In this document: piece after piece, positions 1,425-19,054 of the stretch
Numbering within the stretch: position 1 is the stretch's first letter
Layout of the letters: each line of letters starts with the position of its first letter
Source: Gemmatimonadota bacterium
GTDB taxonomy: Bacteria > Gemmatimonadota > Gemmatimonadetes > Longimicrobiales > RSA9
Assembly (NCBI GenBank): GCA_040905425.1
Contig: JBBDRO010000090.1
Coordinates: forward strand, 1 to 19,054
Length of the DNA: 19,054 nt
Direction of reading: 5' to 3'
The notes under the pieces: generated by a model
Database searches by the model: none
Seen by the model: only the letters and a program-made list of their open reading frames with translations
What the model was told of the DNA's origin: nothing
Translations under genes and position numbers: made by a program

Positions 1425-1430
1425 AGCAAG

Positions 1431-3363: not shown

Positions 3364-3376
3364 GGCGGATATCAAC

Positions 3377-3984: not shown

Positions 3985-4331
3985 GCCGCCTGACCTTCGT
4001 CGCGAACGTTCCGCAGGAACGGCGACGCTGGGGATTGCCAATGATTTTCGGTTGTGAAAACGGTGCTGACCGTGAGGTCATGTTCAAGGGAAAGCTCCGC
4101 AGTGTCGTGGCTCGTCCGGAGGATTTCCTGCCAGTAGGAATCAATCCGATCAAGGACTACGAGGACATCCAGATCACTCCCGGGGCGGGCCTCGCCGCGC
4201 GCGTAGGAACCGTACAGGTAGAGCCCGCGAAGCCGCTCACCGTAGGTCCGCTCGAGGCGGGTGCGCAGTGAGGACAGGATGCCGCGCACGGTCTCCGACG
4301 ATTTCGGCTCTAGCCAGGTGTGGTCGCTCAT
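3981..4331 (-). CDS. Minimal nucleotidyltransferase (MNT) domain protein
   Basis: From ATG 4331 (MSDHTW) with GAGAGG RBS; YGERLRGLYLYGSYARGEARPGSDLDVLVVL and PFLRNVRDEG. Confidence 0.9.
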   Translation of the reverse strand: MSDHTWLEPKSSETVRGILSSLRTRLERTYGERLRGLYLYGSYARGEARPGSDLDVLVVLDRIDSYWQEILRTSHDTAELSLEHDLTVSTVFTTENHWQSPASPFLRNVRDEGQAA

Positions 4332-4414
4332 GGTCCTCTCGCCGTAGAATCGCTGAGGAAAGCTACAATCCACGGTGGGTTGAGGCGAGCCCACGAGGTG
4401 CTGACGCTGTAGCG

Positions 4415-4505
4415 GGAGGAGCCGCTGGAGGTGATGGGCGTCGTCGCTTTTGAGAAACGAGCTCCCTATCTGCCCAGCAGGAACGCAATCAATCCTGCCG
4501 GGAGC
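4415..4505. repeat. Direct repeat copy 2 (91 bp)
   Basis: 87/91 identical to 1894-1984; offset 2521 bp. Confidence 0.95.
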
Positions 4506-4670
4506 AGGGTGCGCCCCCTCAGTCTTGCCCGCCTGACGAGGTCCTCGGATGATATGGGCGTCCCCGAGCGTCACGGGAAGGCCATCAAGCAGAGGTGGCT
4601 TCCATGGCACGGGCGCGGCTTGGAACGCGCGTATATGTAGGTCCGTGGCCCGAAGACGCTCCCAACACGG
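4466..4670 (-). pseudogene. Internally deleted remnant of a second AAA_14/DUF4143 ATPase
   Basis: PCWERLRATDLHIRAFQAAPVPWKPPLLDGLPVTLGDAHIIRGPRQAGKT (Walker A at 4521-4544) parallels the N-terminus of 1945..3363; it then jumps in another frame to LPAGLIAFLLGR*, nearly identical to that gene's C-terminus. Confidence 0.75.
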
Positions 4671-4697
4671 ACCCCCCATTCCAGCGGAGAGGCTGCC

Positions 4698-5219
4698 ATG
4701 CGGAACGCCATGCTCGTGACCGCGCTGACCGTGCTACTCTTCGCGCCTCTCCCCGCCTTCGGGCAGGGCGTCACGCAACCGGCCCGTGCCTGGCTGGGGG
4801 TCGGGCTGGGTGGCGGCGGCGGCATGGAAGACGTGGGCGGAGCGGTGTTCATGGCCCAGCTGGTCTACCAGCACTCACCGCACCATCTGGCGGTGCGTGG
4901 GCTCGCGCTCGGGGAGGTCACGAGCGACAGCGGCAGCCCGAACGTGGGGGAACTGGGGCTGCTCTACGGCCGCACGCGCATGGGCTACATGGGCCACGTG
5001 AGCGCGGCGGCGGGCCTGGCGCTCACGGCGTTCGATCCGTGCCCGAACGATGATGATGGGTGCATCATCCTGGGCGTGCCCGTTGTGCTGGATGCCGCGC
5101 TCCGCGTGTTTCCGGTGGCGGGACTCGGCGCGCAGATTTTCGGCAACCTGAACGCCGAGGCCAGCTACGCGGGTCTGGCCGTCTATCTGCAGCTGGGGTG
5201 GCTGCCGGTGCGGCTGTAG
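4698..5219 (+). CDS. Secreted hypothetical protein, probable small outer-membrane beta-barrel
   Basis: Signal peptide (MRNAMLVTALTVLLFAPLPAFG-Q), Gly/aromatic-rich alternating strands, CX6C loop, ends VYLQLGWLPVRL; GGAGAGG RBS. Confidence 0.7.
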   Translation: MRNAMLVTALTVLLFAPLPAFGQGVTQPARAWLGVGLGGGGGMEDVGGAVFMAQLVYQHSPHHLAVRGLALGEVTSDSGSPNVGELGLLYGRTRMGYMGHVSAAAGLALTAFDPCPNDDDGCIILGVPVVLDAALRVFPVAGLGAQIFGNLNAEASYAGLAVYLQLGWLPVRL

Positions 5220-5288
5220 GGCGGAGGACATCTTTGTGGACGATCTACCCGTCCATCCTGAACGGGTGGAGCAACATTATCACCCCCC

Positions 5289-6443
5289 TCAGCCGGCACC
5301 CTCCAGCGTGAGCCCCACGATCTCCAATACCGGGTAGCCGTCCCCCTCCTCGGTGTAGACCGCCACGCTGCCGTCGTCCAGCACTTGATTGGCGTAGCCA
5401 TCGTAGCGGCGGCTGAGCAGCAGTCTGCCGGACCCGGGGTCCCAGACATCGATCACGCTCTGGTAGAGTTCGTGCTCGCCCGGAATCGCGCTCACGGGCA
5501 CGCCGCCCGTTCCCTCCGGTAGCGGCGGGTACGCCTCCCAGGCCGCCCGCCAGTCCTCGCGCGCCACGTGCCCCAGCACCCAGACCCGACCCCGGTCATC
5601 CGTCCAGAGGGCGGCGATGCGGGCGTTCGGCGCGCGCTCCGGACCGCCGCCCATCCCCTGGGAGCCGTCCGGCAGCCAGCTCGGCTCCGGCCGGAGTTCC
5701 TGGAGAACAGTGCCGTCGGCCGCACGGCGTACGAGCCGGTAGGTGCCGGCGCCCGTGGTCCAGACCGAGCCGTCTTCCGCGGCGGCCACCCGGTAGGAGC
5801 GGCTCTCCATGTCCGGGGCCACCGGGCCGAACGGCTCGCCCAGGATGAGTGAGTCCCGCACGACGGCCCGCTCGCCGGAGACATCCATGAGCAGGGCGCG
5901 GGGGACGTAGCGCATCTGATGGTGCGTGGCCGCCACGGTCGTGGGCCAGGCCATGACCGTGGCATCCTGCACCTGCGCCCGCGACATAACGGCGGTGCGC
6001 ACCCAGGCCAGGTCGGGGCCGTAGACGTGCATGCCGCTTCGGGCGTCGAAGATGGCTATGGAATCGGCCACCCGGAGCGCATGGTCGGGGACCTGGAATT
6101 CGCCGGGTCCGGCGCCGGTCAGCCCCACGGTCTGCAGGAACGCCCCGTCGGCCTCGAAGACCATGGCCGGTTGCCGGTGGAAGACCAGCCAGTAGCGGCC
6201 CATGGCGTCCCGCGCCATGCCATTCGGGCCGTGCGGCAGGGCACCGTTGCCCTCGGCCGTGCCGATGCGCGCCAGGGTGCGCGCCTCCAGCGTGCAACCC
6301 GCGCATGCCTCCGCCATGTCGGCCACCCGCGTGAACGGACTCGCCGCGTCCGCGGGCGGCTCGCCGGCGCCGCACGCCGCGAACGCGGGCGCCGCGGCCA
6401 CGAGGAGGAGGAGCGGAAGAAGGTGGCGCGGGGACCGTCGCAT
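5289..6443 (-). CDS. Lipoprotein, probable 6-bladed beta-propeller (NHL-like)
   Basis: Signal with lipobox-like AFAAC, CAGC motif, VFEADGAFLQTVG..GAGPGEF..P repeat signature, DDRGRVWV, IDVWDP.SGRLL; ATG 6443 with GAGG RBS. Confidence 0.8.
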   Translation of the reverse strand: MRRSPRHLLPLLLLVAAAPAFAACGAGEPPADAASPFTRVADMAEACAGCTLEARTLARIGTAEGNGALPHGPNGMARDAMGRYWLVFHRQPAMVFEADGAFLQTVGLTGAGPGEFQVPDHALRVADSIAIFDARSGMHVYGPDLAWVRTAVMSRAQVQDATVMAWPTTVAATHHQMRYVPRALLMDVSGERAVVRDSLILGEPFGPVAPDMESRSYRVAAAEDGSVWTTGAGTYRLVRRAADGTVLQELRPEPSWLPDGSQGMGGGPERAPNARIAALWTDDRGRVWVLGHVAREDWRAAWEAYPPLPEGTGGVPVSAIPGEHELYQSVIDVWDPGSGRLLLSRRYDGYANQVLDDGSVAVYTEEGDGYPVLEIVGLTLEGAG

Positions 6444-6477
6444 AGAACCTCTGGGGGTATCCATTTAACCGGAGGAA

Positions 6478-6551
6478 TGCCCCACATAGCTGCCACGAGG
6501 GGTCAGCCGTTTGGGCGTGACCCCCCGCCTTTAGGCGTGGGGAGCAGTCAC
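6478..6551 (+). mobile_element. IS200/IS605-family right-end-like hairpin remnant (no tnpA or tnpB)
   Basis: CCCCGCC-TTTA-GGCGTGGGG followed by AGCAGTCAC resembles the subterminal palindrome and TCAC end of this IS family; an extra hairpin GGGGTCA-GCC...GGCG-TGACCCC lies upstream. Confidence 0.5.
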
Positions 6552-6919
6552 TGAGAAAGGAAGTCGACCTCGTATGGCTGCATCGGCCAAGCGCCTGTTT
6601 CCTTCCGCTCCTCCACCCAACGCACCAGCGCGTGGGCAATCCGAGCCGGGTCGCGAGGTAGTCTGTGCGTCAGGATCAGCAGGCCCGCATGAGGACTGCT
6701 TGAGGCAAACGCATCATGGGTAGCGGCCAGAAAGTCATCCCGATTGTGCGTGACCATGATTCTTTGGTCCTGGCCCGCGTAGCGAAGATGTACCGGGTCG
6801 TCCTGAGGCAGGGAGGCCTGAGCATCCTTTGCCGAGCGAATGTCGAGCCCCAGAGCCTCCCCCACCTCGGCACATGAATACGGAACGTCCTCGTCAGTAT
6901 AGAACCGAGCCCCTTTCAC
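6548..6919 (-). CDS. DUF5615 family PIN-like protein (VapC45-like toxin)
   Basis: RFYTDEDVP, D..HLRYA....RIMVTHNRDDF and HAGLLIL motifs; GTGA overlap with the upstream DUF433 gene. Confidence 0.85.
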   Translation of the reverse strand: MKGARFYTDEDVPYSCAEVGEALGLDIRSAKDAQASLPQDDPVHLRYAGQDQRIMVTHNRDDFLAATHDAFASSSPHAGLLILTHRLPRDPARIAHALVRWVEERKETGAWPMQPYEVDFLSQ

Positions 6920-7338
6920 GTGCCTATTCTACGCGTGAAGGGCATCTCCTCGGCTACACGCTCAGGTGTCCAGTAGGCCTCGCGCGCAAGGCGTTCATCG
7001 ATCTCCTCAGGGTAGGCACGGTAGTAGGACACAGCGGCTCGCAACTGGTTCTCTGATACCTCGGGATAGGCCTCAACCAGCTCCTCCCAGTTCTCTCCTG
7101 ACTCCTTCCAGGTCGCAACCACCTCCCAGACCTCCAGTCCTGAGAAGGCGATTGCTGGTCGGCGTTCGTTGCGTCTCTGGACGAACACGATGCCAGGGAC
7201 TCTCGCCGAGCGCAGAGCCTCCTCAATCAAGGAAATCGCGCCCTTGGACCAATCACGCTCTCCACGGAACTGAATCTCTCGGCTGATCTCGCGGTCCAGT
7301 TGCTCGGGGACGCGAAGGCTGTGTTGAATCGACGACAT
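6916..7338 (-). CDS. DUF433 domain antitoxin with N-terminal RHH-like DNA-binding segment
   Basis: SLRVPEQLDREI N-terminus; PGIVF....RRPAIAFSGLEVWEVV and QLRAAVSYYRAYPEEIDERL; ATG 7338 with GGAG RBS (alternative ATG 7353). Confidence 0.85.
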   Translation of the reverse strand: MSSIQHSLRVPEQLDREISREIQFRGERDWSKGAISLIEEALRSARVPGIVFVQRRNERRPAIAFSGLEVWEVVATWKESGENWEELVEAYPEVSENQLRAAVSYYRAYPEEIDERLAREAYWTPERVAEEMPFTRRIGT

Positions 7339-7368
7339 AGCAGGCTCCAGCATGGGTGCGTCGTAAAC

Positions 7369-7390
7369 CACTGTATTACAGTGTAATGCA
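7369..7390. promoter_or_regulatory. Overlapping palindromes, probable operator/promoter of the DUF433-DUF5615 operon
   Basis: CACTGTA-T-TACAGTG (7369-7383) overlapping ATTACA-G-TGTAAT. Confidence 0.6.
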
Positions 7391-7441
7391 ACGCCCGCGC
7401 CAGCGCAAGGTGCCTCAGTGAAGAGCAAACCCGCCCAAGCA

Positions 7442-7570
7442 CGCTGGGCGCTGGCCGACGGGGCCGCCGAGCCCCGGGTCCTGACCCCGGCGGACACGCT
7501 GCGCTGGCAGCCGCGCGGCGCCGGGGCGGTCCTCGAAGTGCCCGTAGGGGAGTTGCTGCCCGACGCCTGA
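7442..7570 (+). pseudogene. 3' remnant of a probable Uma2-family endonuclease gene
   Basis: RWALADGAAEPRVLTPADTLRWQPRGAGAVLEVPVGELLPDA* has host-like G/C-ending codons and resembles Uma2 C-termini as recalled; no homologous 5' part. Confidence 0.45.
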
Positions 7571-7682
7571 GCCCGCCCCCCACCCGCTTGACCGGCGCCA
7601 CCCCTCCCACCTACGTTCCCGTGCGACGCCCTCCTGCCGCAGCACCGTCGCTTCGACAGATCCTCTCTCCGGGAACCCGCTT

Positions 7683-8390
7683 ATGCTGGTACGCGCGCGC
7701 ATGACGCGGGACGTGATCACGGCGTCCCCAGACACCACCCTGGCTCAGGCCCTGAACCTCCTGCGCGCCAAGGAGTTCCGGCACCTTCCTGTGCTCGAGG
7801 ACGGCGCCCTCGTGGGGCTGGTGAGTGACCGCGACCTGCGCATGGCCATGCCGCCCATCTGGGCCGAGGAGCAGGAGGAGCTGCGGCGCGCCCTGGATGA
7901 GAAGACGGTGGGCCACGTCATGACCACCGAGCTGATCACGGTGCCGCCGGACACGCCCATCGAGGAGGCGGCCAAGCTGCTCTACCAGCACCACATCGGC
8001 TGCCTGCCGGTGCTGGAGGACGGCGCCCTGATCGGGATTCTGACGGAGACGGACATCCTGCGCTCCTATGTGGAGCTCTTCGGCGTCGGGGAGCCCTCCT
8101 CGCGGCTGGAGATCCACATGCCCAACCGGCCGGGCGAGCTGGCCCGCGTGGTGCGCATGATCGGCATCGAGCGGAAGGTGAACATCACCGGCATGGTGGT
8201 GCCGCCCACCATCGGGGACCGCGCCACGGCCATCATGCACGTGCAGACGGTCAACCCGGGTCCGCTCGTGGAGGCGCTGCGCCGCATGGGCTACACGGTA
8301 GGCTGGCCGGCGGTGGGGCTGGAGGATCCGGTGTTCACGCCGGCCGGGGAGCGCGGCGAGCGCGGGCTGCGCGCGGCGGAGGCCCTGTAG
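7683..8390 (+). CDS. acuB: CBS-pair + ACT domain protein, AcuB-like
   Basis: Two CBS repeats (FRHLPVLEDGALVGLVSDRDL; IGCLPVLEDGALIGILTETDIL) then ACT (PSSRLEIHMPNRPGELARV); next to an acuC-like gene. Confidence 0.85.
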   Translation: MLVRARMTRDVITASPDTTLAQALNLLRAKEFRHLPVLEDGALVGLVSDRDLRMAMPPIWAEEQEELRRALDEKTVGHVMTTELITVPPDTPIEEAAKLLYQHHIGCLPVLEDGALIGILTETDILRSYVELFGVGEPSSRLEIHMPNRPGELARVVRMIGIERKVNITGMVVPPTIGDRATAIMHVQTVNPGPLVEALRRMGYTVGWPAVGLEDPVFTPAGERGERGLRAAEAL

Positions 8391-8406
8391 GCGCCAGTTA
8401 CGTGCA

Positions 8407-9588
8407 TTGAGCAATTCCATCACGGCGCTCGTCTGGGATGACGTCCTGGCGGGCTACCGGTTCGGCGCCGAGCATCCGCTGAATCCCCGTCGCCTGGAGA
8501 TCACCCTCGATCTCATCCGCCGCCTGGGCCTGGTGGGCAACGGCCACCGCCCCATGGTGCGGCCGGCGCCCGCCACCGACGCGGACCTCCTGCGCGTGCA
8601 CGCCCCCGAGTTCATCGACGCGGTCAAGCGCGCCTCCGCCGGGGACCGATCTCCCGAGCTGGGCCGCTTCGGGCTGGGGTCGGAGGACGTGCCGCTGGTG
8701 GCGGGCATGCACGAGGCGGCCTGCCTGGCGGTGGGCGCCACGCTGAAGGCCGCCGAGCTGGTCATGAGCGGCCGCGCGCGGCGCGCCTTCTCGCTGGCGG
8801 GCGGGCTGCACCATGCCCGGCGCGCGGAAGCGGCCGGCTTCTGCGTCTATAATGACCTGGCCGTGGCCGCCCACTGGATGAAGGAGGTCCATGGCGCGCG
8901 GGTCATGTACATTGACATCGACGCCCACCACGGCGACGGCGTGCAGTGGCTCTTCTACGAGGATCCGGAGGTGCTCACCGTCTCCTTCCACGAGAGCGGC
9001 ACCTACCTCTTCCCGGGCACCGGCTACATCGACGAGGTGGGCCAGGGGGACGGCCACGGTTTCTCCGTGAACGTGCCGCTGGACGCCCACACCGAGGACG
9101 CCTCCTACCGCGCCGCGTTCGAGGAACTGGTGCCGGCCCTGGCCGACGCCTTTCGCCCGGACGTGATCCTCTATCAGGCCGGCTGTGACGCGCACGCGGT
9201 GGACCCACTCACCCACCTGCGCTGTACTACCGGCCTGTACCACGAGCTCACACGCGTGGTGGTGGAGGTGGCCGAGCGGCACTGCCAGGGCCGGGTGGTG
9301 GCAACCGGCGGGGGCGGCTACGCCATCTACGAGGTGGTGCCGCGCGCCTGGACGCTGGTGTGGGCGGCGCTGTGCGGCGCCCACCCGCCCGACGAGCTGC
9401 CGGCGGAGTGGCTGCACGCCATGCGCCTGGAGCACGGCCGCGAGCTGCCGTGCTGTCTGCGGGACGCGCCCGGTGACTACCCGGCCTCGCCCCGGCGCGC
9501 GAGCGTGGACGAGACCAACGAACGCACGCTGGCCGCCGTACGGAGCCGCGTCCTGCCGCTGCTCACGGGCTGGCACCTGGGCTTTTGA
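8407..9588 (+). CDS. acuC: AcuC-like Zn-dependent lysine deacetylase (HDAC family)
   Basis: HPLNPRR, GGLHHA, GFCVYND, DIDAHHGDG, FPGTG, NVPL, QAGCDAH..DPLTHL, GGGGY and VPRAW all intact; TTG start. Confidence 0.93.
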   Translation: MSNSITALVWDDVLAGYRFGAEHPLNPRRLEITLDLIRRLGLVGNGHRPMVRPAPATDADLLRVHAPEFIDAVKRASAGDRSPELGRFGLGSEDVPLVAGMHEAACLAVGATLKAAELVMSGRARRAFSLAGGLHHARRAEAAGFCVYNDLAVAAHWMKEVHGARVMYIDIDAHHGDGVQWLFYEDPEVLTVSFHESGTYLFPGTGYIDEVGQGDGHGFSVNVPLDAHTEDASYRAAFEELVPALADAFRPDVILYQAGCDAHAVDPLTHLRCTTGLYHELTRVVVEVAERHCQGRVVATGGGGYAIYEVVPRAWTLVWAALCGAHPPDELPAEWLHAMRLEHGRELPCCLRDAPGDYPASPRRASVDETNERTLAAVRSRVLPLLTGWHLGF

Positions 9589-10094
9589 TGGCACCTCCGG
9601 TGCATGCCTGGCTGCGGGACAAGACGGGCATCCCCTTCATCGTGCGGGACTACCAGCCGGTGGACCGCGTGGGGTTGGAGGCCATGTATGAGGACTTCGA
9701 TCCCAAGCGCGCCGCCCAGGGCCTGCCCCCCGAGAAGGTGGACGCGGTGCGGCGCTGGCTGGACGGCGTGCTGCCGCAGGGCCGGCACCTGGTGGTGGAG
9801 GTGGCGGGCCGCGTGCTGGGCCACGTCATGATGGTGCCCATGAACGGCCGTACGGAGATGGCCAGCTTCCTCCACCAGTCCATCCGCGGCCGCGGCATCG
9901 GCACGGCCGCGCACGGCGTGGCGCTGGAGGTCTGCCGCGCGGTCGGCTGGCATCACCTGTGGCTCTCCGTGCGGCCCATGAACCGGGCGGCCATCCGTTC
10001 GTACGAGAAGGTGGGCTTCCGCATGCTGGCGGGGAGTCTCTGGGAGCCGGAGCTGGAAATGGAACTACTCATCCCGAAAGCGGAGCAGGTATGA
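9588..10094 (+). CDS. GNAT family N-acetyltransferase
   Basis: Acetyl-CoA motif A (FLHQSIRGRGIGT) and N.AAIRSYEKVGF; TGATG overlap with acuC. Confidence 0.9.
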   Translation: MAPPVHAWLRDKTGIPFIVRDYQPVDRVGLEAMYEDFDPKRAAQGLPPEKVDAVRRWLDGVLPQGRHLVVEVAGRVLGHVMMVPMNGRTEMASFLHQSIRGRGIGTAAHGVALEVCRAVGWHHLWLSVRPMNRAAIRSYEKVGFRMLAGSLWEPELEMELLIPKAEQV

Positions 10095-11731
10095 AGCGCA
10101 CACGCGTCCTGGCCACGTGGTCCCTGGTGGCCCTCCTCGTGGCGCTGGCCAGCACCGGCTTCGCCCTGCAGAGCCGGTCGCAGACGTCCTCCAGCACGCG
10201 CCTGCTGGAGCAGGTGCTGCAGCGCGTGAGCTTCGACGGCGTGGACTCGCTGGCGCGCGAGGTGGTCATCGAGAAGGCCGCGCGCGGCTTCGTGGAGCAG
10301 CTCGACGATCCGTACGCCGCGCTCTACTCCCCCGAGGAGCTGGCCGCCTTCTCACGCGAGACCATCGGCAATGACTACGGCGGCCTGGGCATGATGATCG
10401 AGGACCAGCAGGGCGTGATCACCGTCACGCGGGTCTTCCCCGATACGCCGGCCGAGCGCGGCGGCGTGCAGCCCGGCGACCGCATCGTGGAGGTGGCCGG
10501 GGAGCCGATCCGGGGCTGGTCGGTGGAGCGCACCTCCACCACGCTGCTCGGTCCGCCGGGCAGCTCGGTGGACGTGACCTTCGCGCGCCCGGGCATGGAG
10601 AGCACCTTCGGCGGCGGCTTCGAGCGCGCCCGCGTGCATCAGCCGGCGGTCCCCTTCGTGACCCTTCTTGAAGGCGACGTCGGCTACTTACCGCTCCAGC
10701 GCTTCAGCCAAGCATCCACGGCCGAGCTGGCCGCCGGCGTGGCGCGCCTGCGCGCCGCGGGCGCCCGCGCGTACGTCCTGGACCTGCGCGGCAACGGCGG
10801 CGGCAGCCTGCCGGAGGCCGTCTCCATCGCGGACCTCTTCCTGCCCGAGGGCAGGGAGGTGGTGCGCATTGTCTACCGCAGCCAGCCCACCGAGGTCTAC
10901 CGCTCCGAGCGACCCGCCGCCGCGGGTGACGCGCCCGTGGTGGTGCTCACGGACCGCTTCACCGCCTCCGCCTCGGAGATCGTGGCGGGCGCTCTCCAGG
11001 ATCACGACCGCGCCCTCATCGTTGGCCAGCGCAGCTTCGGCAAGGGCGTGGTGCAGGACGTCTTCGGGCTGGACGCCGGCTGGGCGCTCAAGCTCACCAC
11101 CGGCAAGTGGTACACGCCGAGCGGCCGCACGCTGCAGCGTGACTGGGCGGCGCACGCCGCGGGCGCCGAGGCGGCGGAGGCGGTGGAGGGGGCGCACGGA
11201 GCGCAGGGGGCGGATGCGGCGGCGGACGCCCACGTGCCGGCGCACGCCGCGGACTGCACCGCCGCGCTGGCGGTCACCTCCGCGGGCGGGCGGCGCCTGT
11301 GCGCCGGCGGCGGCGTCTTCCCCGACCACCCCGTGGCGCCGGATTCGCTCACCGGCCCCGACCGGGCGCTCATGCGCGCCGTGGGCGCCAACGCCACCCA
11401 GCTCTACTTTGCCGTCCATGAGGTGGCGCTTGAGCTGAAGGAGGGTGTGGGGCGGGACTTCGTGGTGCTGCCCGCGTGGCGGGCCATGCTCTACGAGCGC
11501 TTCCTGGCCAAGGGCGGCAGTGTGGAGCGGGCGGTCTTCGACGCCGGCCACGGCATCGTGGACCAGCTCCTGGAGCGGCGCATTGCCGGCTTTGCGTTCG
11601 GCGATGACGCCGCCTTCCTGCGCGCGGCCGTCCAGGACACGCAGCTGCAGGAGGCGCTGCGGCTGCTCCGCGCCGCGCGCACGCAGCCCGAGCTGCTGGC
11701 GCTGGCGGCGGGCGGCCGGCCCACCGGCTGA
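10091..11731 (+). CDS. S41 family carboxyl-terminal processing protease (PDZ + peptidase S41)
   Basis: ATG 10091 (ATGA overlap); signal peptide, LDDPY, GGLGM PDZ, DLRGNGGG, TASASEIVAGALQDHDRA, SFGKGVVQ, WYTPSGR. Confidence 0.93.
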   Translation: MKRTRVLATWSLVALLVALASTGFALQSRSQTSSSTRLLEQVLQRVSFDGVDSLAREVVIEKAARGFVEQLDDPYAALYSPEELAAFSRETIGNDYGGLGMMIEDQQGVITVTRVFPDTPAERGGVQPGDRIVEVAGEPIRGWSVERTSTTLLGPPGSSVDVTFARPGMESTFGGGFERARVHQPAVPFVTLLEGDVGYLPLQRFSQASTAELAAGVARLRAAGARAYVLDLRGNGGGSLPEAVSIADLFLPEGREVVRIVYRSQPTEVYRSERPAAAGDAPVVVLTDRFTASASEIVAGALQDHDRALIVGQRSFGKGVVQDVFGLDAGWALKLTTGKWYTPSGRTLQRDWAAHAAGAEAAEAVEGAHGAQGADAAADAHVPAHAADCTAALAVTSAGGRRLCAGGGVFPDHPVAPDSLTGPDRALMRAVGANATQLYFAVHEVALELKEGVGRDFVVLPAWRAMLYERFLAKGGSVERAVFDAGHGIVDQLLERRIAGFAFGDDAAFLRAAVQDTQLQEALRLLRAARTQPELLALAAGGRPTG

Positions 11732-11762
11732 GCGGCGCGGCGGCTCTGGCATAAAGAGGGGG

Positions 11763-11789
11763 GGGGCGTACCGGGCTGGCCCGCGCCCC
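11763..11789 (-). terminator. Possible intrinsic terminator between convergent genes
   Basis: GGGGCG-TAC-CGGGC-TG-GCCCG-CGCCCC bulged hairpin; the minus strand continues with a C-run then TCTTT. Confidence 0.35.
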
Positions 11790-11816
11790 ACGCGCGTTCA
11801 GCGGTTGAAATGCCGC

Positions 11817-12293
11817 CTACTCGGAACCCGTACGACGGGAGCTGTGCTCGTAGCCCTCGCGGACGAACGGGCGCATCTGCTCGTAGTCCCGGCCCGCGGC
11901 GTCCTGCTTCCAGCCGCTCTTCAGGTCCGGCTCGACCTCGTCGAACGGGCGGCCACGGTAGTCGGGGTTGTGCCCCGCCACGTGCCCCACGCCATAGCCC
12001 AGCCGGGCGTCATCGTACTTCAGGTTCTCGGACGACGTGGTCTTGTAGTGGGTGCGGTAGTGGTCCTCTTCCTTGCCCATGTCCTCCACGGCCCGGCCGG
12101 CCTTCTCGCCGGCCCACCAGCCGCCCACAGCGCCCGCGATGCCGCCGAGGACCGTGCCGATCGGGCCCGCCACGGAACCGATGGCCGCGCCCGCGGCCGT
12201 GCCGCCGATGCCGCCCACGGCCTCGCCGGCCTGCTCACCCGCGCCCGGGTTTTCGTCACGTACGTCATCGGGAAGATGCTTGCGATCCGTCAT
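11817..12293 (-). CDS. Glycine-zipper-containing hypothetical protein (possibly stress-associated)
   Basis: AVGGIGGTAAGAAIGSVAGPIGTVLGGIAGAVGGWWAG zipper, then a hydrophilic domain (FDEVEPDLKSGW); AGGAGG RBS. Confidence 0.8.
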   Translation of the reverse strand: MTDRKHLPDDVRDENPGAGEQAGEAVGGIGGTAAGAAIGSVAGPIGTVLGGIAGAVGGWWAGEKAGRAVEDMGKEEDHYRTHYKTTSSENLKYDDARLGYGVGHVAGHNPDYRGRPFDEVEPDLKSGWKQDAAGRDYEQMRPFVREGYEHSSRRTGSE

Positions 12294-12466
12294 TTATACC
12301 TCCTGTAAGGTGTGCCTCTCAACAGGGCTTGCCATAAACGCATGGATCGCGCCAGCTCGGGTACGGGGGCGGGGGGGAGAAACCTGTCGTGTGACCCCTT
12401 CAGCGCGTATCGTCAATGTGATGCGCTCGGCGGCCGCCGAGGCTTCCCCCTCTCCCGGAGGTACGC

Positions 12467-12874
12467 ATGAAGAGCCTGGCACAACGTGGCGCCCTGCTGT
12501 TCGGCGTGGTGTTCCTGCTGGTGGGCATCCTGGGACTGTTCGTGGACAACGGCATGAGCATGGACGCGGACATGGCCACTGCCGGCCGCCTGTTCGGCCT
12601 CTTCCCCGTGAACTTGCTGCACAACCTGGTGCACCTGGGCTTCGGCGTGTGGGGCATCGTTGCGTCCCGCGGCAAGGGGGCATCGGTCACGTACGGTTGG
12701 CTGGGCGGCGCGGTCTACGGCGCGCTGGTCATCCTGGCCTTCGTCACGCCCACGCTGTTCGGGCTGGTGCCGATCGGCGGGCATGACATCTGGCTGCATG
12801 CCGTGCTGGCGCTGGGCCTGCTCGGCCTGGCCGTGTCGGGCAGGAAGGGAACGGGCGCGGCTACGCCGGTCTGA
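12467..12874 (+). CDS. DUF4383-like integral membrane protein
   Basis: Four hydrophobic helices; GVVFLLVGILG, LFGLFPVNLLHNLVHL..G, DIWLH; GGAGG RBS. Confidence 0.85.
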   Translation: MKSLAQRGALLFGVVFLLVGILGLFVDNGMSMDADMATAGRLFGLFPVNLLHNLVHLGFGVWGIVASRGKGASVTYGWLGGAVYGALVILAFVTPTLFGLVPIGGHDIWLHAVLALGLLGLAVSGRKGTGAATPV

Positions 12875-12939
12875 GCCGGAGGCTTCGGCAGGTTACTGTC
12901 GGGCGGGAGGCGCCGGTGGCGGTCCGGCCGGGGGGCGGG

Positions 12940-13009
12940 GGGGGGGGCCGGGCCCCCCCCACGGCCCGTGCGTGGTCCGCACGGGCCGTCGGGTGCCGGG
13001 TGCCGACGG
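12940..13009. terminator. Cluster of GC-rich hairpins between convergent genes
   Basis: Perfect 12-bp stem ACGGCCCGTGCG-TGGTC-CGCACGGGCCGT (12961-12989) flanked by a G8CC/GGC8 stem and CCGTCGG...CCGACGG. Confidence 0.5.
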
Positions 13010-13010
13010 G

Positions 13011-13184
13011 CTAGATTCTGCGCATACGGTTGGAGACCGTGTTGAAGCGCACGCCCTTGAGGCGCTTGATGCCCTCGCTGGTGCGCTTGAAGACCTCCGC
13101 GCGCTTGCGGTCCACGCTGTCCTGATTGAGCCAGTAAAAGGGAGTGGGGGTGCCGTCCTTCTTGAAGATCTTGACCTTGGCCAT
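13011..13184 (-). CDS. Small basic hypothetical protein (57 aa)
   Basis: MAKVKIFKKDGTPTPFYW...; GGAG RBS, strongly G/C-ending codons, Lys/Arg-rich. Confidence 0.7.
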   Translation of the reverse strand: MAKVKIFKKDGTPTPFYWLNQDSVDRKRAEVFKRTSEGIKRLKGVRFNTVSNRMRRI

Positions 13185-13309
13185 GCTGCGTCTCCGCTCT
13201 CTTGGAGAGGGTCGAACCACACGGGGGCGTTCGAAGGGGTTCTGGCAGGATTGAAACGTGATACCCCGCGGGGGTCGGTGCGGTCCCGATGGGCACAGCG
13301 GTAGCCCGC

Positions 13310-14824
13310 TCAGCGCTCCCTCGCCAGTTCATTGCCGATGGCCACCACCGCCGCCACCAGCGCGTCCACATCCGCCGCCGTGGTCCGGTGGTTGGTGAAG
13401 GAGGCGCGCAGAGCAAAACGGCCGTTCAGCACCGTGGAGGAGGGCACCGCCAGGCCGCGCTCCTGGAGGCGCATGAGAAGTTCGCGGTTGAGGGCGTTCA
13501 GGCTGCGGGGGTCATCGGGCTCCGCCGGTGCGGCGCCGATGGAGGCGGCGCCGGAGGCTGGCGCGGGGACGCGGCTTGAAGGGGTGTAGCGGAAGCAGAC
13601 GATGTTCAGCGGCACGGGCGCCAGGCGCTCCAGGTCGGGATGGGCGTCCACCCGCTCGGCCAGGCGGCGGGCGTGGGCCACGTCCGCGGCAATGGCCGCC
13701 GCGTGCGCGTCCGCGCCGAGCGCCTTCAGGGCAAACCAGGTGGAGAGCCCGCGGAAGCGACGGGTGAGCTCGGGGCCGTCGCCGCCGAAGACGTGGCCGC
13801 CGGAGGCTGGGCCGCGCGTGAAGGGCGCCAGGTAGGCGGCGCCCGAGGCGAAGGCGCTGCGCTGGGCCGCGCGGTCGCGGATCAGGATGCAGCCGGCGCC
13901 CACGGGCGCGTGCAGCCATTTGTGGAGGTCGAAGGCCAGGGAGTCGGCGCGCGCCATGCCGCGCGTCAGGTGGCGGAGCTCCGGGACGAGGTGCGCCAGG
14001 GCGCCGAAGGCACCGTCCACGTGCAGCCAGAGCGCTTCGCGCTGACAGAGGTCCGCCAGCGCCTCCAGGTCATCGAAGGCGCCGGTGTTGACCGTGCCAG
14101 CGTTGGCCACCACGCAGATAGGGCGCGCCCCCGCCGCCCGGTCCGCGGCGATCATGCGCTCCAGGACGTCCGGCTGGATGGAGAAGTCGGCGTCCACCGG
14201 CACCTTCCGCACGGCCGTCCTCCCCAGCCCCAGCGTGGCCGCCGCCTTGTGCACGGAGCTGTGCGTCTCGGTGGATGCGTAGACGGTCAGCTGCGGCAGG
14301 CCGCGGATGCCGTCGGCCGCGGCGGCGCCTCCGGCGTGCGCCTCCCGGGCGGCGGCGAGCGCCACCAGGTTGGCCACCGAGCCGCCGCTCACCAGCACGC
14401 CCGGCGCGCGGAAGTCCAGCAGGTCGCCGAGCCAGCCGATGAGCTGGTCCTCCACGTAGCTGGCCGCCTCCTCGAAGCCGCCCGCGTTCACGTTGAGGGA
14501 GGCGGTGAGCAGGTCCCCGAGCATGCCCACGGGCGTGCCGCCGCCGTTCACCCAGCCCCACCACCGGGGGTGGATCTGGCGCAGCGCATAGGGGCGCACG
14601 TGGGTGAGGAAGTCCTGGTAGGCGGCCTCGGCGCCGGTAGGGTGATGGGGGACGTCGCTTGAAAGGGCCGCCCGCGTGTCCGCCGGCATGGCGCGCCAGG
14701 CGGGCTCGGTGCCGATGTCCCGCAGGCGGTCCAGGGCGTCATCCACCATGCGGTGGGCCAGGGCGCGCAGGGTGTCCCAGTCGGCGGGGTCGAGGGTGGC
14801 GGGAGGCTTGTCGGAGCTGGTCAC
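13310..14824 (-). CDS. Group II PLP-dependent decarboxylase (aromatic L-amino acid/DABA decarboxylase-like)
   Basis: HPRWWGWV, SGGSVAN, HSSVHKA, AGTVNTGAFDDL, WLHVDGAFGA, ADSLAFDLHKW (PLP lysine), LNIVCFRY, NHRTT. Confidence 0.92.
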   Translation of the reverse strand: MTSSDKPPATLDPADWDTLRALAHRMVDDALDRLRDIGTEPAWRAMPADTRAALSSDVPHHPTGAEAAYQDFLTHVRPYALRQIHPRWWGWVNGGGTPVGMLGDLLTASLNVNAGGFEEAASYVEDQLIGWLGDLLDFRAPGVLVSGGSVANLVALAAAREAHAGGAAAADGIRGLPQLTVYASTETHSSVHKAAATLGLGRTAVRKVPVDADFSIQPDVLERMIAADRAAGARPICVVANAGTVNTGAFDDLEALADLCQREALWLHVDGAFGALAHLVPELRHLTRGMARADSLAFDLHKWLHAPVGAGCILIRDRAAQRSAFASGAAYLAPFTRGPASGGHVFGGDGPELTRRFRGLSTWFALKALGADAHAAAIAADVAHARRLAERVDAHPDLERLAPVPLNIVCFRYTPSSRVPAPASGAASIGAAPAEPDDPRSLNALNRELLMRLQERGLAVPSSTVLNGRFALRASFTNHRTTAADVDALVAAVVAIGNELARER

Positions 14825-14837
14825 GGGCGGCTCTGGT

Positions 14838-16841
14838 CTAGCCGGGGTCGGTGTTGGCGTTGGCGTTGGCGCCTACTCTACCGACCCGAACCGACAGCCG
14901 CCAGCCGGCGGCCCCGTGCGCCAGGCTGACCATGCTCTCACGCTCGCCCGCCTCCACGAAGAGCCCCACGCCGAGGTCCACGAAGGTGCCGCTTTCGGCG
15001 GTGCCGAGCCGGGAGCGGGCATGAGCCGCGTCGGCGAAGAGGGATGCGCCCATCCGCGCGGGCCCAATCCGCCTGAAGATGCGATGCTCCGCGGTGGCGT
15101 GCAGTAGCGTCCGCCCGAAGGCCGGGCCCGCGATCGCGTCATCCTCGACCAGGTCGTGCGCCCGGAGGAGGTAGGCCCGTACATCCCCCGTGCCGGCGCC
15201 GGGCCAGACCATGGCGGGGGCGTCCGGGGACGCGGCGGTGCCGCCCGCGCGCAGGCGCCACTCGCGCTGCGTGCCCCGGGGGATGGTGGCGCCCGCTTCG
15301 AGGCCCGCCTTTGCGAACGTCCGTGCCGCACCGGTCCAGGCGTCCCCGCGGGCGTTGAGCCAGAATCGGTCAGCGTCGGTCACCCAGCGGGCGTCGAGGC
15401 CGGCGTTCAGCAGGCGCACCGATTCGTCCGTGGCGTCGGCGCTCCAGTCCGGCACCTGCCAGGCCTCGGCGGCCAGGCTCGCTCCCAGGCGCACGCGCGG
15501 ATGGATCCACTCCTGAAGCGTGAGGAAGCCGCGCCGGCGCTGCTGGGTCAGGACCGGCGCTGATGCCCCGCCTTCCGCGGCGGCCCGTGTGGCGAAGCGC
15601 TCGCTCCGCCACTCCACCCCCACGGTGGCCACACCCGGCAGCGGTGGTGCCGGCGTGGACACCGATCCGCCGAGAAAGCGCTGCGCCGACCGCCAGCTTG
15701 CGGCGGCGCGCCAGCGGTCGCCCGCCGCCATGACGGGGCCGAGCTCCAGGCTCATACGCTGGTTCACGAGGCCGCGGACGCCCTGCAGCGCCAACGCCCG
15801 GAGGCCCGGCATGCGGCCGCGCTCGAGCACGGCGGCCCGCACTTCTACGCTGCCGTCGGCCAGGGGCACGTAGTCGAGGCGGGATTGCTGTACGGCGGGG
15901 AGCTGCGCCAGACGGCGTTGGGCCAGCGCCAGGGCGGTGGGCGTGAGGATGGCGCCGTGCTCCAGGGCCATGCGGTCCGCTGCAACGTGGAAGCGCGTGG
16001 CCGCCAGGCCGTCGATGCGCACCAGGTCGATGGTGGGCTCGCCAAGCTCGTTCCATGCGGCGAGCGCGCGGTCCCGCTCTCCCTCGAGGAACCAACTGGT
16101 GGCCACGACGCGGCGCCCCAGTACGGCCTTACTGCCGCCCTCCTGTACCATGGCTCCGGCTGCCGCGCGCGCACCCTCTGTATCACCGCCGCGGAGGCGC
16201 GCCATGGCCAGGTCGAGTGCGGGGTTGGGGGCCGTTACGGGGCTGGCGGGGGCGGTCTGCGGGAGGTTCGGGGATGGCGCCGGGGTGGCGGCAGACGGCG
16301 CTGATGCGGTTGCGGAGGGGGCCAGGAACAGCGCCCAGTACCCGGACGCCTCCCACCTGCGGAGCAGTTCTGCCCGGTCCAGCTCACGCCGCGGCCCGAA
16401 ATTGGGATCGTGGATCCAGACCCGGTCCTCCTCCACGCCCACCAGGACCACGTAGTGGAGGCGGGTGGCCCCGGATTCGAGGAGCAGGATGGGCGGCACG
16501 CCGTCCGCCAGGGCGGCCAGGGCGCGCTCCGGCTCGCGGCTGGAGACGGCCACGGTGTAGCCCCGCTCCCGCATGGCGGACGCCAGCTCCGACGTGCGGA
16601 TCCCCCCTTCCGCCTCCCTGACCAGGTGGCCGAAGTCATGCCCATACACGCCCCGGGCGCCCCAGTACCGCTCCACCATGGCCGCCGCGGCGCCACCGCA
16701 CAGGAGCGGGCCCTGTGCCACGAAAGGCACCTCGAGAGATGCCCTCTCGAGGGTGTCACCCACGAACCCGCGGACCCCGGGAGGATCTGCCCCCCCGGGG
16801 CCCAGCAGGCCCGCAATGACCGCGAGGCCGGCCGCGATCAC
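14838..16841 (-). CDS. C39-like cysteine peptidase fused to a helical/TPR-like segment, POTRA-like domain and Omp85-like beta-barrel
   Basis: VPFVAQ...C48, LH129YVVLVG and IHD145P triad; Pro/Ala linker; POTRA-like residues ~269-341; C-terminal amphipathic strands with LRAH, AEHR and LFADAA. Confidence 0.75.
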   Translation of the reverse strand: MIAAGLAVIAGLLGPGGADPPGVRGFVGDTLERASLEVPFVAQGPLLCGGAAAAMVERYWGARGVYGHDFGHLVREAEGGIRTSELASAMRERGYTVAVSSREPERALAALADGVPPILLLESGATRLHYVVLVGVEEDRVWIHDPNFGPRRELDRAELLRRWEASGYWALFLAPSATASAPSAATPAPSPNLPQTAPASPVTAPNPALDLAMARLRGGDTEGARAAAGAMVQEGGSKAVLGRRVVATSWFLEGERDRALAAWNELGEPTIDLVRIDGLAATRFHVAADRMALEHGAILTPTALALAQRRLAQLPAVQQSRLDYVPLADGSVEVRAAVLERGRMPGLRALALQGVRGLVNQRMSLELGPVMAAGDRWRAAASWRSAQRFLGGSVSTPAPPLPGVATVGVEWRSERFATRAAAEGGASAPVLTQQRRRGFLTLQEWIHPRVRLGASLAAEAWQVPDWSADATDESVRLLNAGLDARWVTDADRFWLNARGDAWTGAARTFAKAGLEAGATIPRGTQREWRLRAGGTAASPDAPAMVWPGAGTGDVRAYLLRAHDLVEDDAIAGPAFGRTLLHATAEHRIFRRIGPARMGASLFADAAHARSRLGTAESGTFVDLGVGLFVEAGERESMVSLAHGAAGWRLSVRVGRVGANANANTDPG

Positions 16842-17218
16842 TTGATCAGAAGAATCAGTATCAGCAGTCCGATGATGATGGCCGTGGTCGAGATCACGAT
16901 GGTGCTGCCGCCCACCTGATCAGGATCCTCCCTGCCCTCCACACGGCGGGCCAGGTCAGCCACGGCGCCCGCCCCGAGCGTGCTCAGCGCTGTCCGTACC
17001 CGGTCCAGGTCCAGGCCGTGCGAGGCCGCGGCCTCACCCACGTCGGTGCGGTTCAGGAAATCCTCCACCACCTGCCGGTCCCGCTCGGCGGGCGCCGCCT
17101 CGGCGGCCATGGTCCGGAGTTCGCTGGTGGCGTCCTGCGTGGCGGTCTCCTGGGCGTGCAACTCCCCGGAAACGGAAAACAGAATGATCAGGGACAGAAC
17201 GGAAGTGAGTGTTCGCAT
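16838..17218 (-). CDS. PA2779-like secreted protein with Gly-Gly motif and hydrophobic C-terminal tail (126 aa)
   Basis: ATG 17218 with GAGGAG RBS; signal peptide ending LHA-Q; helical FLNRTDV...GLDLDRVRTALSTL core; QVGG then STIVISTTAIIIGLLILILLIK; GTGA overlap with the peptidase gene. Confidence 0.8.
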   Translation of the reverse strand: MRTLTSVLSLIILFSVSGELHAQETATQDATSELRTMAAEAAPAERDRQVVEDFLNRTDVGEAAASHGLDLDRVRTALSTLGAGAVADLARRVEGREDPDQVGGSTIVISTTAIIIGLLILILLIK

Positions 17219-17353
17219 GGTGCCGGGCTCCTCGCGTGGATAGGTCCTCAGTGTGAGGTTGTGGGGTGAGGACGTTCGCAATGGCCGTGCCCCACTGGTT
17301 CGGCTTAGCGTATATTCATTCCGACTCCTTCCCGACCCGACCCCGAGCGAGCC

Positions 17354-18391
17354 ATGAACCAGCGCACTCCAGCAGCAGAGCCGGACCGCGCTCCCGCGTG
17401 GTGTATGGGGTGCCTGCGCGCCGCAGCGAGGGGCGCGCTGCTGGCTGCGCTCGTTCCGGTCGGCGGGTGTGGCCCCGTCCTTTCCGGGAACGACCCGGCC
17501 CCCTTCACGCATGCCTCCCCCGCTCACGCCGCGCTGGAGATCGAGCAGGAGCGCACGATGGACGGCTACGTCGTGCGGGTCGTGAGCTTCGAGAGCCCCG
17601 TGGGCGGTCGCGTGCCGGCGTACCTCCATCGCCCGTCAGGTCCCCTCGCCGCGGGCGCCTCGCCCGCGCTACTCATGCAGCATGGCATGCCGGGCGACCC
17701 GGCGTCGCTGGAGGGGCTCGCGGCCGCGTACGCGCGCGCCGGTGTGTTCGTGCTCAGCATCTCGGCGCCGTTCAACCGCCCCGACAGCCTGTCCGACAGG
17801 GCGCCGGGCCTGCTGCCCGCGCCGCATTTCGACATGCACGACAGCACCCACGTGGTGCAGCTGGTGCACGAGCAGCGGCGCGCCCTGGACATGCTGCAGG
17901 CGCTGCCCGAGGTGGATCCCGAGCGGGTCGGCTTCGTGGGCTTCAGCTACGGCGGCTGGATCGGCGCGCTCCTGGCCAGCGTGGAGCCGCGCCTGGCGGC
18001 GGCGGTGCTCATGGCGCCCACGGGCGGGCTGGCGTCTCTGCTGCGCTCGCACTGGGACAATACCGGCTACCTGTTCGTCCTCGCGGGCCGTGCCCTGGAG
18101 GAGGAGCAGCGCGCCCGCTGGCTGCGCATGATGGAGCCGCTCGAAGCGGAGCGCTGGCTGGGCCGGGACCGGCGCACGCCGGTGCTCATCCAGGCCGGCC
18201 TCTACGACCGCACCGTCCTGCCACCCGAAGCACACCGCCTCTTTATCGGGGCGGCCCACCCGAAGAAGCTGCTGTGGTACGCGGCGGGGCACGATCTCGG
18301 CCGCACCGCGTTCCACGAGCAGGCCGCGTTCCTGGCCGACGCCATGGGTATCGATCTGGACCGGTTCAAGGCGCCCGCGTCACTCTTCTGA
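17354..18391 (+). CDS. Alpha/beta-hydrolase (dienelactone hydrolase/S9/acetylxylan esterase-like), probable lipoprotein
   Basis: VPAYL, HG, EVDPERVGFVGFSYGG nucleophile elbow, GLYD and AGHD; lipobox-like VGGC; start codon uncertain. Confidence 0.85.
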   Translation: MNQRTPAAEPDRAPAWCMGCLRAAARGALLAALVPVGGCGPVLSGNDPAPFTHASPAHAALEIEQERTMDGYVVRVVSFESPVGGRVPAYLHRPSGPLAAGASPALLMQHGMPGDPASLEGLAAAYARAGVFVLSISAPFNRPDSLSDRAPGLLPAPHFDMHDSTHVVQLVHEQRRALDMLQALPEVDPERVGFVGFSYGGWIGALLASVEPRLAAAVLMAPTGGLASLLRSHWDNTGYLFVLAGRALEEEQRARWLRMMEPLEAERWLGRDRRTPVLIQAGLYDRTVLPPEAHRLFIGAAHPKKLLWYAAGHDLGRTAFHEQAAFLADAMGIDLDRFKAPASLF

Positions 18392-18684
18392 CGGCGCAAC
18401 AGAGCGTCGCGCTCACACCAACAGCGCCCCCTCCAGCCGCAGCAGGGCCTCCTTCCTCCACAGTTCGCCGCCATAGCCCACGAGCTTGCCGTTCGCACCG
18501 ATGACCCGGTGGCACGGCACCACGATGGGCAGCGGATTGGCGCCGGTACACGTCTTGCCGCATCACCATGGATCTACACATACGTGTACCAGTGCCTCGC
18601 TCTTCCACTGGGCGGCCACTTGAATCTAGAGGCCGGAGCCCGCTGACTTGGCCAGCGTCCGGCCATAATGTTCTGCGGGGCAAC

Positions 18685-19054
18685 ATGGCAGGAACAGGCG
18701 CAATAATCGGGCTCCTCGGTCTCCGCCTAGCGGAATCGAGTTTGTACAAGGTGCGTTATCTTCAGGCCCTTCCATCCGCAGACCGGCCCGGTCATCACGT
18801 CATCGTTACAGACCTGCCCACAGCCGAGCACCTACCGGCGGTGCTGGGGTGGCTGGCAAGAGCTCGTGGTATACGACCCCATTTCGCATTCGGGTTGGTG
18901 CTGCCATACTTCGATGACGGATCGGTGATGCGGGCAGCGCTCAGCACGCCCGAGCCGCCGACGCTCGTTTTCCTCTGCGGAGAGGCCCCCCACGGGGTCC
19001 TGTCCGATACCGCGGTGGCCGCTCTCCTGACCCATGGAGTCATCGAGCTATTGG
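18685..19054 (+). CDS. Partial hypothetical protein running off the window
   Basis: ATG 18685 opens a stop-free frame to the window end (MAGTGAIIGLLGLR...HHVIVTDLP...LLTHGVIELL); absent from the ORF track because it has no stop; atypical codon use. Confidence 0.5.
   Translation, partial: MAGTGAIIGLLGLRLAESSLYKVRYLQALPSADRPGHHVIVTDLPTAEHLPAVLGWLARARGIRPHFAFGLVLPYFDDGSVMRAALSTPEPPTLVFLCGEAPHGVLSDTAVAALLTHGVIELL

Follow-up and report, generated by a model that had tools for sequence, protein, structure and literature searches.

What does a double-glycine peptidase do when it is joined to an outer-membrane barrel? The question is raised by a stretch of 19,054 nucleotides from a Gemmatimonadota bacterium (Longimicrobiales, RSA9; assembly GCA_040905425.1, contig JBBDRO010000090.1, positions 1 to 19,054), the whole of which we refer to as the window. 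One gene in it encodes a protein of 667 amino acids (aa) that consists, from its N-terminus, of a C39 peptidase, a Pro/Ala linker, two TPR-like repeats, one POTRA and an Omp85-fold barrel (Table 1). An earlier interpretation made from the letters of the window (the sequence-only reading) had described this gene as a candidate type Vd-like machine, but had overlooked a small partner gene directly upstream. We propose, with a probability of about one in two, that the two genes form an envelope module in which the tethered C39 peptidase cuts the partner from its membrane anchor at a Gly-Gly, the barrel serving as the anchor of the enzyme and perhaps as the exit for the released domain.

The order of enzyme, POTRA and barrel given by the sequence-only reading holds in the results of Pfam, AlphaFold2 (AF2), Foldseek, VIA-align and hhalign, and is shared by 84 full-length homologues. 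A Pfam scan of the protein matched the N-terminal peptidase as the sole domain. The AF2 model, for which the family alignment served as input, has a mean predicted local distance difference test score (pLDDT) of 88.3 and a predicted template modelling score (pTM) of 0.86, and is laid out as the peptidase (residues 33-175), a disordered segment (181-201), four helices (207-264), a beta-alpha-alpha-beta-beta unit (270-340), a helix (347-360) and fifteen strands (362-655). The peptidase is matched by Peptidase_C39_2 (PF13529) over residues 36-147, with 33.1 bits against a gathering threshold of 24, and by Peptidase_C39 (PF03412) over residues 48-167, with 30.8 bits against a threshold of 22. Q43, C48, H129 and D145 are invariant in all 66 homologues of the alignment from which the conservation figures for the large protein are taken, and these matches and this invariance bear out the intact catalytic pattern reported earlier. 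The domain also has a profile match to ComA (E 4.8e-6), and a pairwise alignment puts C48 on the Cys of ComA's 'MDCG' and D145 on the Asp at ComA position 112, which we take to be the catalytic residues of ComA. Among NCBIfam models, the best match is the PA2778 family cysteine peptidase (NF033920; E 3.7e-9, model positions 4-152), and C39_FapD gives a weak match (E 0.036).

The Pro/Ala linker was also read correctly, with residues 181-201 disordered in the model at pLDDT < 50. Its length across the family is 20-65 aa (median 32), and its composition is 20% Pro and 17% Ala. A single Cys closes the Pro-rich linker (reference residues ~200-207; for example ...ACDS, ...TCEQ) in 9 of 12 further homologues (P0058-P0069), but not in the window's clade. 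The short helical pair that had been placed after the linker is helical indeed, but comprises four helices, i.e. two TPR-like repeats, rather than a pair. Weak profile matches to designed TPR proteins (E 0.008-0.1) support the assignment, and precomputed TPR matches from Pfam are present in several homologues. The POTRA proposed for residues 269-341 is confirmed by the topology of the model and by the alignment of residues 270-340 with POTRA3 of TamA and POTRA5 of BamA.

Foldseek against the PDB placed TamA on top (E 5.5e-13), together with many BamA entries. Structural superposition with VIA-align gave a Z score of 23.0 for TamA 8us3 (root-mean-square deviation, rmsd, 4.8; 351 residues aligned, model residues 261-657), 22.7 for E. 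coli TamA 4c00 and 22.6 for the TamA barrel alone (4n74; rmsd 3.4, 274 aligned), and 19.7 for both FhaC and a chain of the fungal SAM complex (9nk6_B). The TamA and BamA matches, at Z 21-23, take in the POTRA as well as the whole barrel. Within the same genome, hhalign of the family profile against a profile of four Omp85 paralogues returned a probability of 95.7% and an E value of 9.5e-9 over 354 columns. PF01103, the Pfam model for Omp85, has no match to the 667-aa protein at E ≤ 10, and a search of the genome with this model found eight other genes (loci L090-L097), the large gene not being among them. These eight matches, with open frames of 650-1126 aa in a 4.1-Mb genome, make an unusually large Omp85 complement.

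The sequence-only reading had recognized the barrel from two degenerate motifs, LRAH and LFADAA. Their DNA coordinates were exact upon recomputation, and hhalign to the own-genome paralogues places them on VRGF and FxDxG, respectively. LRAH (residues 559-562; 15156-15167) aligns to the RG of VRGF in the loop that corresponds to loop 6 (L6) of Omp85 proteins; R560 is invariant, L558, L559 and H562 are conserved at 90% or more, and LLRGH is retained in some homologues. On FxDxG, a motif of Omp85 strand beta13, fall F602, which is invariant, and D604, which is conserved at 90% or more. The window protein thus keeps the Arg, Phe and Asp of these motifs but has exchanged both glycines for Ala (A561 in VRGF, A606 in FxDxG) and the aromatic residue for His. 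A barrel of about 16 strands had been predicted; the barrel fold stands, as the similarity to TamA demonstrates, but the model shows 15 strands by DSSP and a 14-residue helix (pLDDT 87-90) at the position of beta1. This helix is aligned by hhalign to the beta1 region of the own-genome Omp85 paralogues, which is where beta1 lies in BamA. As modelled, a helix may take the place of Omp85 strand beta1, possibly with an altered lateral seam. The C-terminal extension past the last strand contains ANANAN, encoded by a hexanucleotide repeat ((GTTGGC) x 3.2; 14853-14871); the exact ANANAN is missing from 13 other homologues compared, the closest two of which (P0003, P0004) have related tails of similar length.

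A fusion so unusual could be due to chance, misassembly or a pseudogene, but no support for such an origin was found beyond the blindness of the Pfam Omp85 model to the barrel and the existence of some short database entries. A word-indexed search found 84 full-length homologues, nearly all 600-720 aa long with a query coverage of 89-100%, and the few with names belong to Longimicrobiaceae or Longimicrobiales. A HMMER scan of 1.84 billion representatives returned 740 clusters (at 50% identity) with E ≤ 1e-30, and the best 150 of these are all full length (586-821 aa, whole profile matched). Of 80 genome loci, 62 have an uninterrupted frame of 481-854 aa, and the AF2 model is confident. Stand-alone forms among close relatives were sought in 20 'shorter' hits: the three of these 20 that were inspected as sequence (P0090, P0096, P0097) were truncated or frame-shifted copies of the fused gene, and P0088 and P0105 were scanned against NCBIfam. 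Judged by the conservation data, an artefact is excluded as the origin of the fusion, and we allow it a negligible probability.

Homologues are spread over two phyla. A sample of the window's phylum had a match in 11 of 201 genomes (7 of 99 genera), each as one open frame of ~700 aa. From a sample of 201 Acidobacteriota genomes, 19 matched at E ≤ 1e-20 (a tally that includes the unpublished G250), and four of these 19 carry full-length fusions. Six of the remaining Acidobacteriota loci were fetched (L098-L103; G371, G401, G289, G234, G211, G216). The C39 and TPR-POTRA-barrel parts are adjacent, co-oriented separate genes at five of them (G371, G401, G289, G234, G216), with C39 open reading frames (ORFs) of 162-189 aa (one longest ORF has 300 aa) and TPR-POTRA-barrel ORFs of 566-605 aa; the sixth, L102 (G211), yielded no more than a small gene and a POTRA-barrel ORF of 419 aa, which covers profile positions 247-609. 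Translations of the longest ORFs have a signal-like hydrophobic stretch near the N-terminus in all split C39 proteins and in four of the five split barrel proteins. The sequence-only reading had counted peptidase and barrel as separate genes in homologues as a sign of a chance fusion. Such genes do exist in some Acidobacteriota, but the likeness is one of form only, as the split genes are adjacent and co-oriented. Fusion in some lineages and adjacency in others argue for functional coupling and not for a chance fusion, and a free, Sec-exported C39 in the split forms favors the periplasm as the site of action.

The partner gene ends in a TGA that overlaps the GTG start of the large gene (GTGA). 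Its product begins with a signal peptide (residues 1-22), is disordered up to residue 40, and continues with four short helices (41-95), a flexible stretch (96-107) and a C-terminal membrane helix (108-125). The AF2 model of the partner has a pLDDT of 65.7, with disorder at 17-40, values of 78-86 for the helices at 41-95 and values below 50 at 103-107; Foldseek found no PDB fold match for it at E ≤ 0.001. We surveyed partners by an iterated hidden Markov model search seeded with the small protein of the window, in 80 loci that encode relatives of the large protein, fetched from 203 confirmed by a degenerate-pattern scan; the 80 come from Gemmatimonadota and Acidobacteriota (mainly Vicinamibacteria). 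Together with the window this makes 81 loci, and in 80 of them a same-strand homologue of the partner is found immediately upstream (the exception is L064). The partners are 124-134 aa long and all start with a signal peptide, A22, the likely -1 residue, being nearly invariant; export signals are present on both proteins in most homologues. A motif (L)(A/V)GG is conserved, with GG in 78 of the 79 aligned partners, and mean column identity is 0.69 for xxLAGG and 0.65 for the hydrophobic tail, compared with 0.44-0.55 for the periplasmic domain and the rest.

The partner of the window matches the NCBIfam model PA2779_fam (NF033919) at E 1e-6, as do all 79 family partners (best E 8.8e-15), one of which, in G201, is above the cut-off with 44.5 bits; Pfam DUF6627 matches 65 of the 79. 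A relation to Nif11 leaders was considered and rejected, the matches being too weak (8 of 79 partners for Pfam Nif11, with E 0.0027 at best, and 4 of 79 for NCBIfam leader_Nif11, with E 0.0032 at best), and RIFIN matches to 41 and 48 of the 79 were taken as compositional. These profile matches relate the N-terminal half of the large protein to the PA2778 family and its partner to the PA2779 family, two families that NCBI names separately. The genes for PA2778 and PA2779 are adjacent, one for a C39-TPR protein and one for a small protein, an arrangement also present in our loci. Two short family copies, P0088 (340 aa) and P0097 (353 aa), match NF033920 over positions 3-248, i.e. over C39 plus TPR, and the NF033920 model, with 255 positions, is without POTRA or barrel, unlike the window protein. 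The PA2779 profile had no match in 14 control genomes. In the accessible portions of two reports, PA2778 is listed as a candidate type VI secretion system toxin with nothing further (bioRxiv 10.1101/733030) and PA2779 appears as a hypothetical protein (PMC3985676). Our literature search, outside of which lay most subscription journals, found neither a functional study of the Pseudomonas PA2778/PA2779 pair nor a paper on the C39-POTRA-Omp85 architecture, in agreement with the sequence-only reading, which knew of no characterized example.

We also examined whether the two proteins are predicted to bind each other; the large protein was represented by residues 33-345 and the partner by residues 24-126, and three controls were run alongside. 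The interaction prediction score from aligned errors (ipSAE) was 0.70, 0.66 and 0.66 (median 0.66), and the best control reached 0.18. In a benchmark, 116 of the 157 solved complexes attain that mark, as do 2 of the 215 mismatched pairs; with the custom alignments employed here, this calibration is rough. At least 81% of contacts are common to the runs, and the partner pLDDT is at least 67. The confident interface joins TPR residues 209-259 and POTRA residues 277-278 and 319-342 to partner residues 26-43 and 73-82. The model thus supports docking of the partner's N-terminal peptide on the TPR-POTRA surface, and this docking can be likened to the binding of clients by the POTRA domains of Omp85 proteins.

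The partner, which has a conserved GG before a membrane anchor and docks on TPR-POTRA in the model, is the likely substrate of the C39 domain. In the mechanism that we propose, Sec would export the partner, and its C-terminal helix would keep it in the inner membrane, with the Gly-Gly in the flexible stretch just outside the helix. The large protein would reside in the outer membrane, its POTRA, TPR repeats and tethered C39 domain on the periplasmic side. The TPR-POTRA surface would capture the disordered N-terminal peptide of the partner, and the C39 domain would swing on the Pro-rich linker to cut after Gly-Gly, which would free a soluble domain of ~82 residues from a 22-residue anchor. The barrel would hold the whole assembly in the outer membrane and might hand the released domain on, as in two-partner secretion.

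Several known systems resemble the module in part. The peptidase-containing ABC transporters ComA and PCAT1 have the C39 fold and the catalytic Cys/His/Asp in common with the window protein, and their substrates carry GG. However, their peptidase is cytoplasmic and fused to an inner-membrane ABC exporter, whereas here it would be exported by Sec and is fused to an outer-membrane barrel, and the GG that follows an N-terminal leader in their substrates precedes a C-terminal anchor in the partner. FapD is described, in the available part of its report, as a C39-like peptidase that Sec exports to the periplasm; secretion through FapF, a barrel in the outer membrane, depends on its catalytic Cys (PMC5557850). 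By analogy, it provides a precedent for a periplasmic C39 enzyme working with an outer-membrane barrel, although FapD and FapF are separate proteins, unlike the fusion here. The same text likens FapF, a trimeric barrel, to the 12-stranded autotransporter type, not to Omp85 (PMC5557850). In two-partner secretion, as outlined in the accessible text of another report, a barrel of the Omp85 superfamily binds an adjacently encoded partner through its periplasmic POTRA (bioRxiv 10.1101/2021.11.09.467682). This system (type Vb, FhaC/TpsB-TpsA) resembles ours in its adjacent partner gene and its Omp85-superfamily barrel, but TpsB has two POTRAs where the window protein has one, TpsA is a beta-helix with a two-partner secretion (TPS) domain where our partner is a helical, anchored protein of 126 aa, and a protease is built in only here.

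Several observations weigh against the proposed cleavage and export. The complex model leaves the C39 active site and the GG outside its confident contacts, although residues not named there are to be read as uncertain, not as absent from the interface. A peptidase on the outer membrane would have to act at a point only 3-4 residues away from the inner membrane, which is possible but not obvious with a linker of median length 32 aa. The N-terminus of the window protein is without a charged n-region, and both window copies fall below the curated NCBIfam cut-offs (36.4 bits against 150 for the peptidase, 28.9 against 40 for the partner). The partner of L035 has no GG. Among the split loci, a partner gene lies upstream in L101, L102 and L103, that of L102 being without GG, and no partner-like ORF was found in the 5 kilobases (kb) fetched for each of L098-L100. 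Finally, transport through the barrel is a speculative step.

Other explanations account for part of these data. The C39 domain might be the passenger of a type Vd-like autotransporter, threaded through its own barrel with the linker in the pore and acting at the surface or after release, as is reported for the patatin of PlpD (PMC4104836). PlpD has the same order of N-terminal enzyme, single POTRA and C-terminal Omp85-type barrel, and here a linker also follows the enzyme. The barrel is nearer to TamA and BamA (Z 23) than to FhaC (Z 19.7), just as PlpD is closer to Omp85 than to TpsB according to the accessible part of a superfamily survey (PMC4104836). However, a C39 peptidase stands in the place of the patatin, TPR repeats are inserted between linker and POTRA, and there is a dedicated partner gene; the earlier type Vd-like label is an analogy only. 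The split forms, in which C39 is a separate Sec-exported protein, have no passenger in cis. The conserved GG partner, anchored in the inner membrane, makes a periplasmic peptidase the simpler reading, a location for which FapD is the precedent. We consider it unlikely that the C39 domain is such a passenger.

The insertases TamA and BamA are the top fold matches, and so the barrel might instead be an assembly factor with a built-in protease for quality control or maturation, by analogy to BepA and BAM; the small protein would then not be the substrate but an adaptor, tether or regulator that bridges both membranes. This would accommodate the docking of the modelled partner on TPR-POTRA rather than at the active site and the weak match of the TPR of P0088, a partial copy, to BepA (E 1.9e-4). 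The similarity to TamA and BamA extends over the POTRA and the whole barrel, including the L6 Arg and the Phe and Asp of FxDxG, but the window protein differs in its degenerate motifs (LRAH, FADAA), the missing PF01103 match, the helix modelled at beta1 and the fused protease. E. coli BamA has five POTRAs. TamA has three according to the accessible text of the survey (PMC4104836), compared with one here, and it pairs with the inner-membrane-anchored TamB, as stated in the part available of a further report (PMC11014939). Such a role would leave the conserved GG beside a GG-specific peptidase family unexplained, no conserved third gene was found among the related loci as a possible client, and the genome already has eight Omp85 genes detectable by Pfam. 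An assembly factor therefore seems to us an improbable answer. A different view of the partner, modelled on double-glycine peptides with leader and core, would make its N-terminal domain a long leader and its 22-residue hydrophobic C-terminal peptide, freed at GG, the product. The tail and GG are indeed the most conserved parts of the partner, and there are the weak Nif11-leader-like matches mentioned above, but these are far below significance, and a Sec signal peptide leads the precursor. What would be the 'core' is a plain membrane helix conserved across two phyla, whereas bacteriocin cores vary, and no ABC exporter or modification genes were found, nor were the immunity genes evident that such peptides would require. 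We regard this as very unlikely.

Table 1. Position of the module and its parts in the window (all on the minus strand)
Feature	Residues	Window position	Strand	Remarks
C39-TPR-POTRA-Omp85 protein gene		14838..16841	(-)	667 aa, GTG start
C39-type cysteine peptidase domain	33-175	16317..16745	(-)	catalytic Q43, C48, H129, D145
Pro/Ala-rich disordered linker	176-206	16224..16316	(-)	pLDDT < 50 at 181-201
Two TPR-like repeats	207-264	16050..16223	(-)	four helices; predicted partner-docking surface
Single POTRA	269-341	15819..16037	(-)	beta-alpha-alpha-beta-beta in AF2 model
Helix at beta1 position	347-360	15762..15803	(-)	14 residues; DSSP on model, pLDDT 87-90
Omp85-fold barrel	362-655	14877..15758	(-)	15 DSSP strands; AF2, Foldseek, VIA-align, hhalign
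L6-like loop, WPGAG...LLRAH	538-573	15123..15230	(-)	counterpart of RFxxGG...VRGF (hhalign)
LFADAA		15024..15041	(-)	second strand after L6; counterpart of FxDxG, aligned to own paralogues
Partner gene		16838..17218	(-)	126 aa; directly upstream of large gene, start/stop overlap
Gly-Gly, proposed C39 cleavage site	103-104 (partner)	16907..16912	(-)	flexible stretch, 3-4 residues before membrane helix
Sigma-54-like -24/-12 element		17278..17291	(-)	GGCACG-N4-TTGC; 60 nucleotides upstream of partner ATG

The surroundings of the gene pair offered no conserved third gene. In a crude clustering of the ORFs of 81 loci, the most frequent family apart from the pair reached 27 loci; it runs antisense to the small genes, has no Pfam match and probably represents a shadow ORF. 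A methyltransferase (18 loci) and a cupin (14 loci) came next. The sigma-54-like element is the sole match to its pattern in the window, and 24 of 200 shuffled sequences yield at least one; the genome encodes rpoN. In 6 of 80 loci, mostly Gemmatimonadota, the 200 nucleotides upstream contain a relaxed form of the pattern, against a background of 0.0046 per 200 nucleotides. The motif is only suggestive of sigma-54 control of the window module, and with 6 of 80 loci we rejected such control as a general feature of the family. No RNA data were listed for this DNA; five DNA runs from two sediment metagenome studies were, and two of them may be its source.

Downstream, a gene for a pyridoxal phosphate-dependent decarboxylase (13310-14824, minus strand; Pyridoxal_deC, E 6.8e-57) starts 13 nucleotides past the stop of the large gene and may be co-transcribed with it; decarboxylases are not among the gene families common to many related loci. 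A divergent alpha/beta hydrolase gene (S9/DLH-like; 17354-18391, plus strand) lies beside the module on its other side, and an S41 tail-specific peptidase with a PDZ domain is encoded at 9959-11731 (plus strand). Genes for a nucleotidyltransferase (Polbeta/NTP_transf_2), an AAA_14-DUF4143 protein and a DUF433 protein occupy 624-4679 and 6916-7497 (both minus strand); clusters of this kind are often found in toxin-antitoxin or defense islands.

Omp85 proteins are central to the assembly of the outer membrane and to passage across it, and the architecture described here joins two known kinds of protein, the Omp85 superfamily and the C39/GG peptidases. The available part of the 2014 survey of the Omp85/TpsB superfamily distinguishes ten subfamilies, none with a cysteine peptidase (PMC4104836). 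The family is large and belongs to soil and sediment Gemmatimonadota and Acidobacteriota, and since the Pfam Omp85 model misses it, surveys based on Pfam are blind to it. It would mount a double-glycine peptidase, facing the periplasm, on a scaffold of the outer membrane and, as modelled, may include a naturally occurring Omp85 barrel whose lateral seam is altered. The module also gives a directly testable pair of substrate and enzyme for the PA2778 and PA2779 families. More tentatively, and in our view doubtfully, the module could be a new route of outer-membrane sorting or secretion, in which C-terminal Gly-Gly plus a helix would act as a signal that parks a Sec-exported precursor in the inner membrane, the TPR-POTRA of a dedicated, highly divergent Omp85 protein would capture the parked protein, C39 would cut it by hydrolysis or possibly by a sortase-like thioester transfer, and a barrel with a helix for beta1 would pass the product across or into the outer membrane. 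If true, type V-like secretion would gain another branch, one that has its maturation protease built in, and the PA2778/PA2779 families would have their first function.

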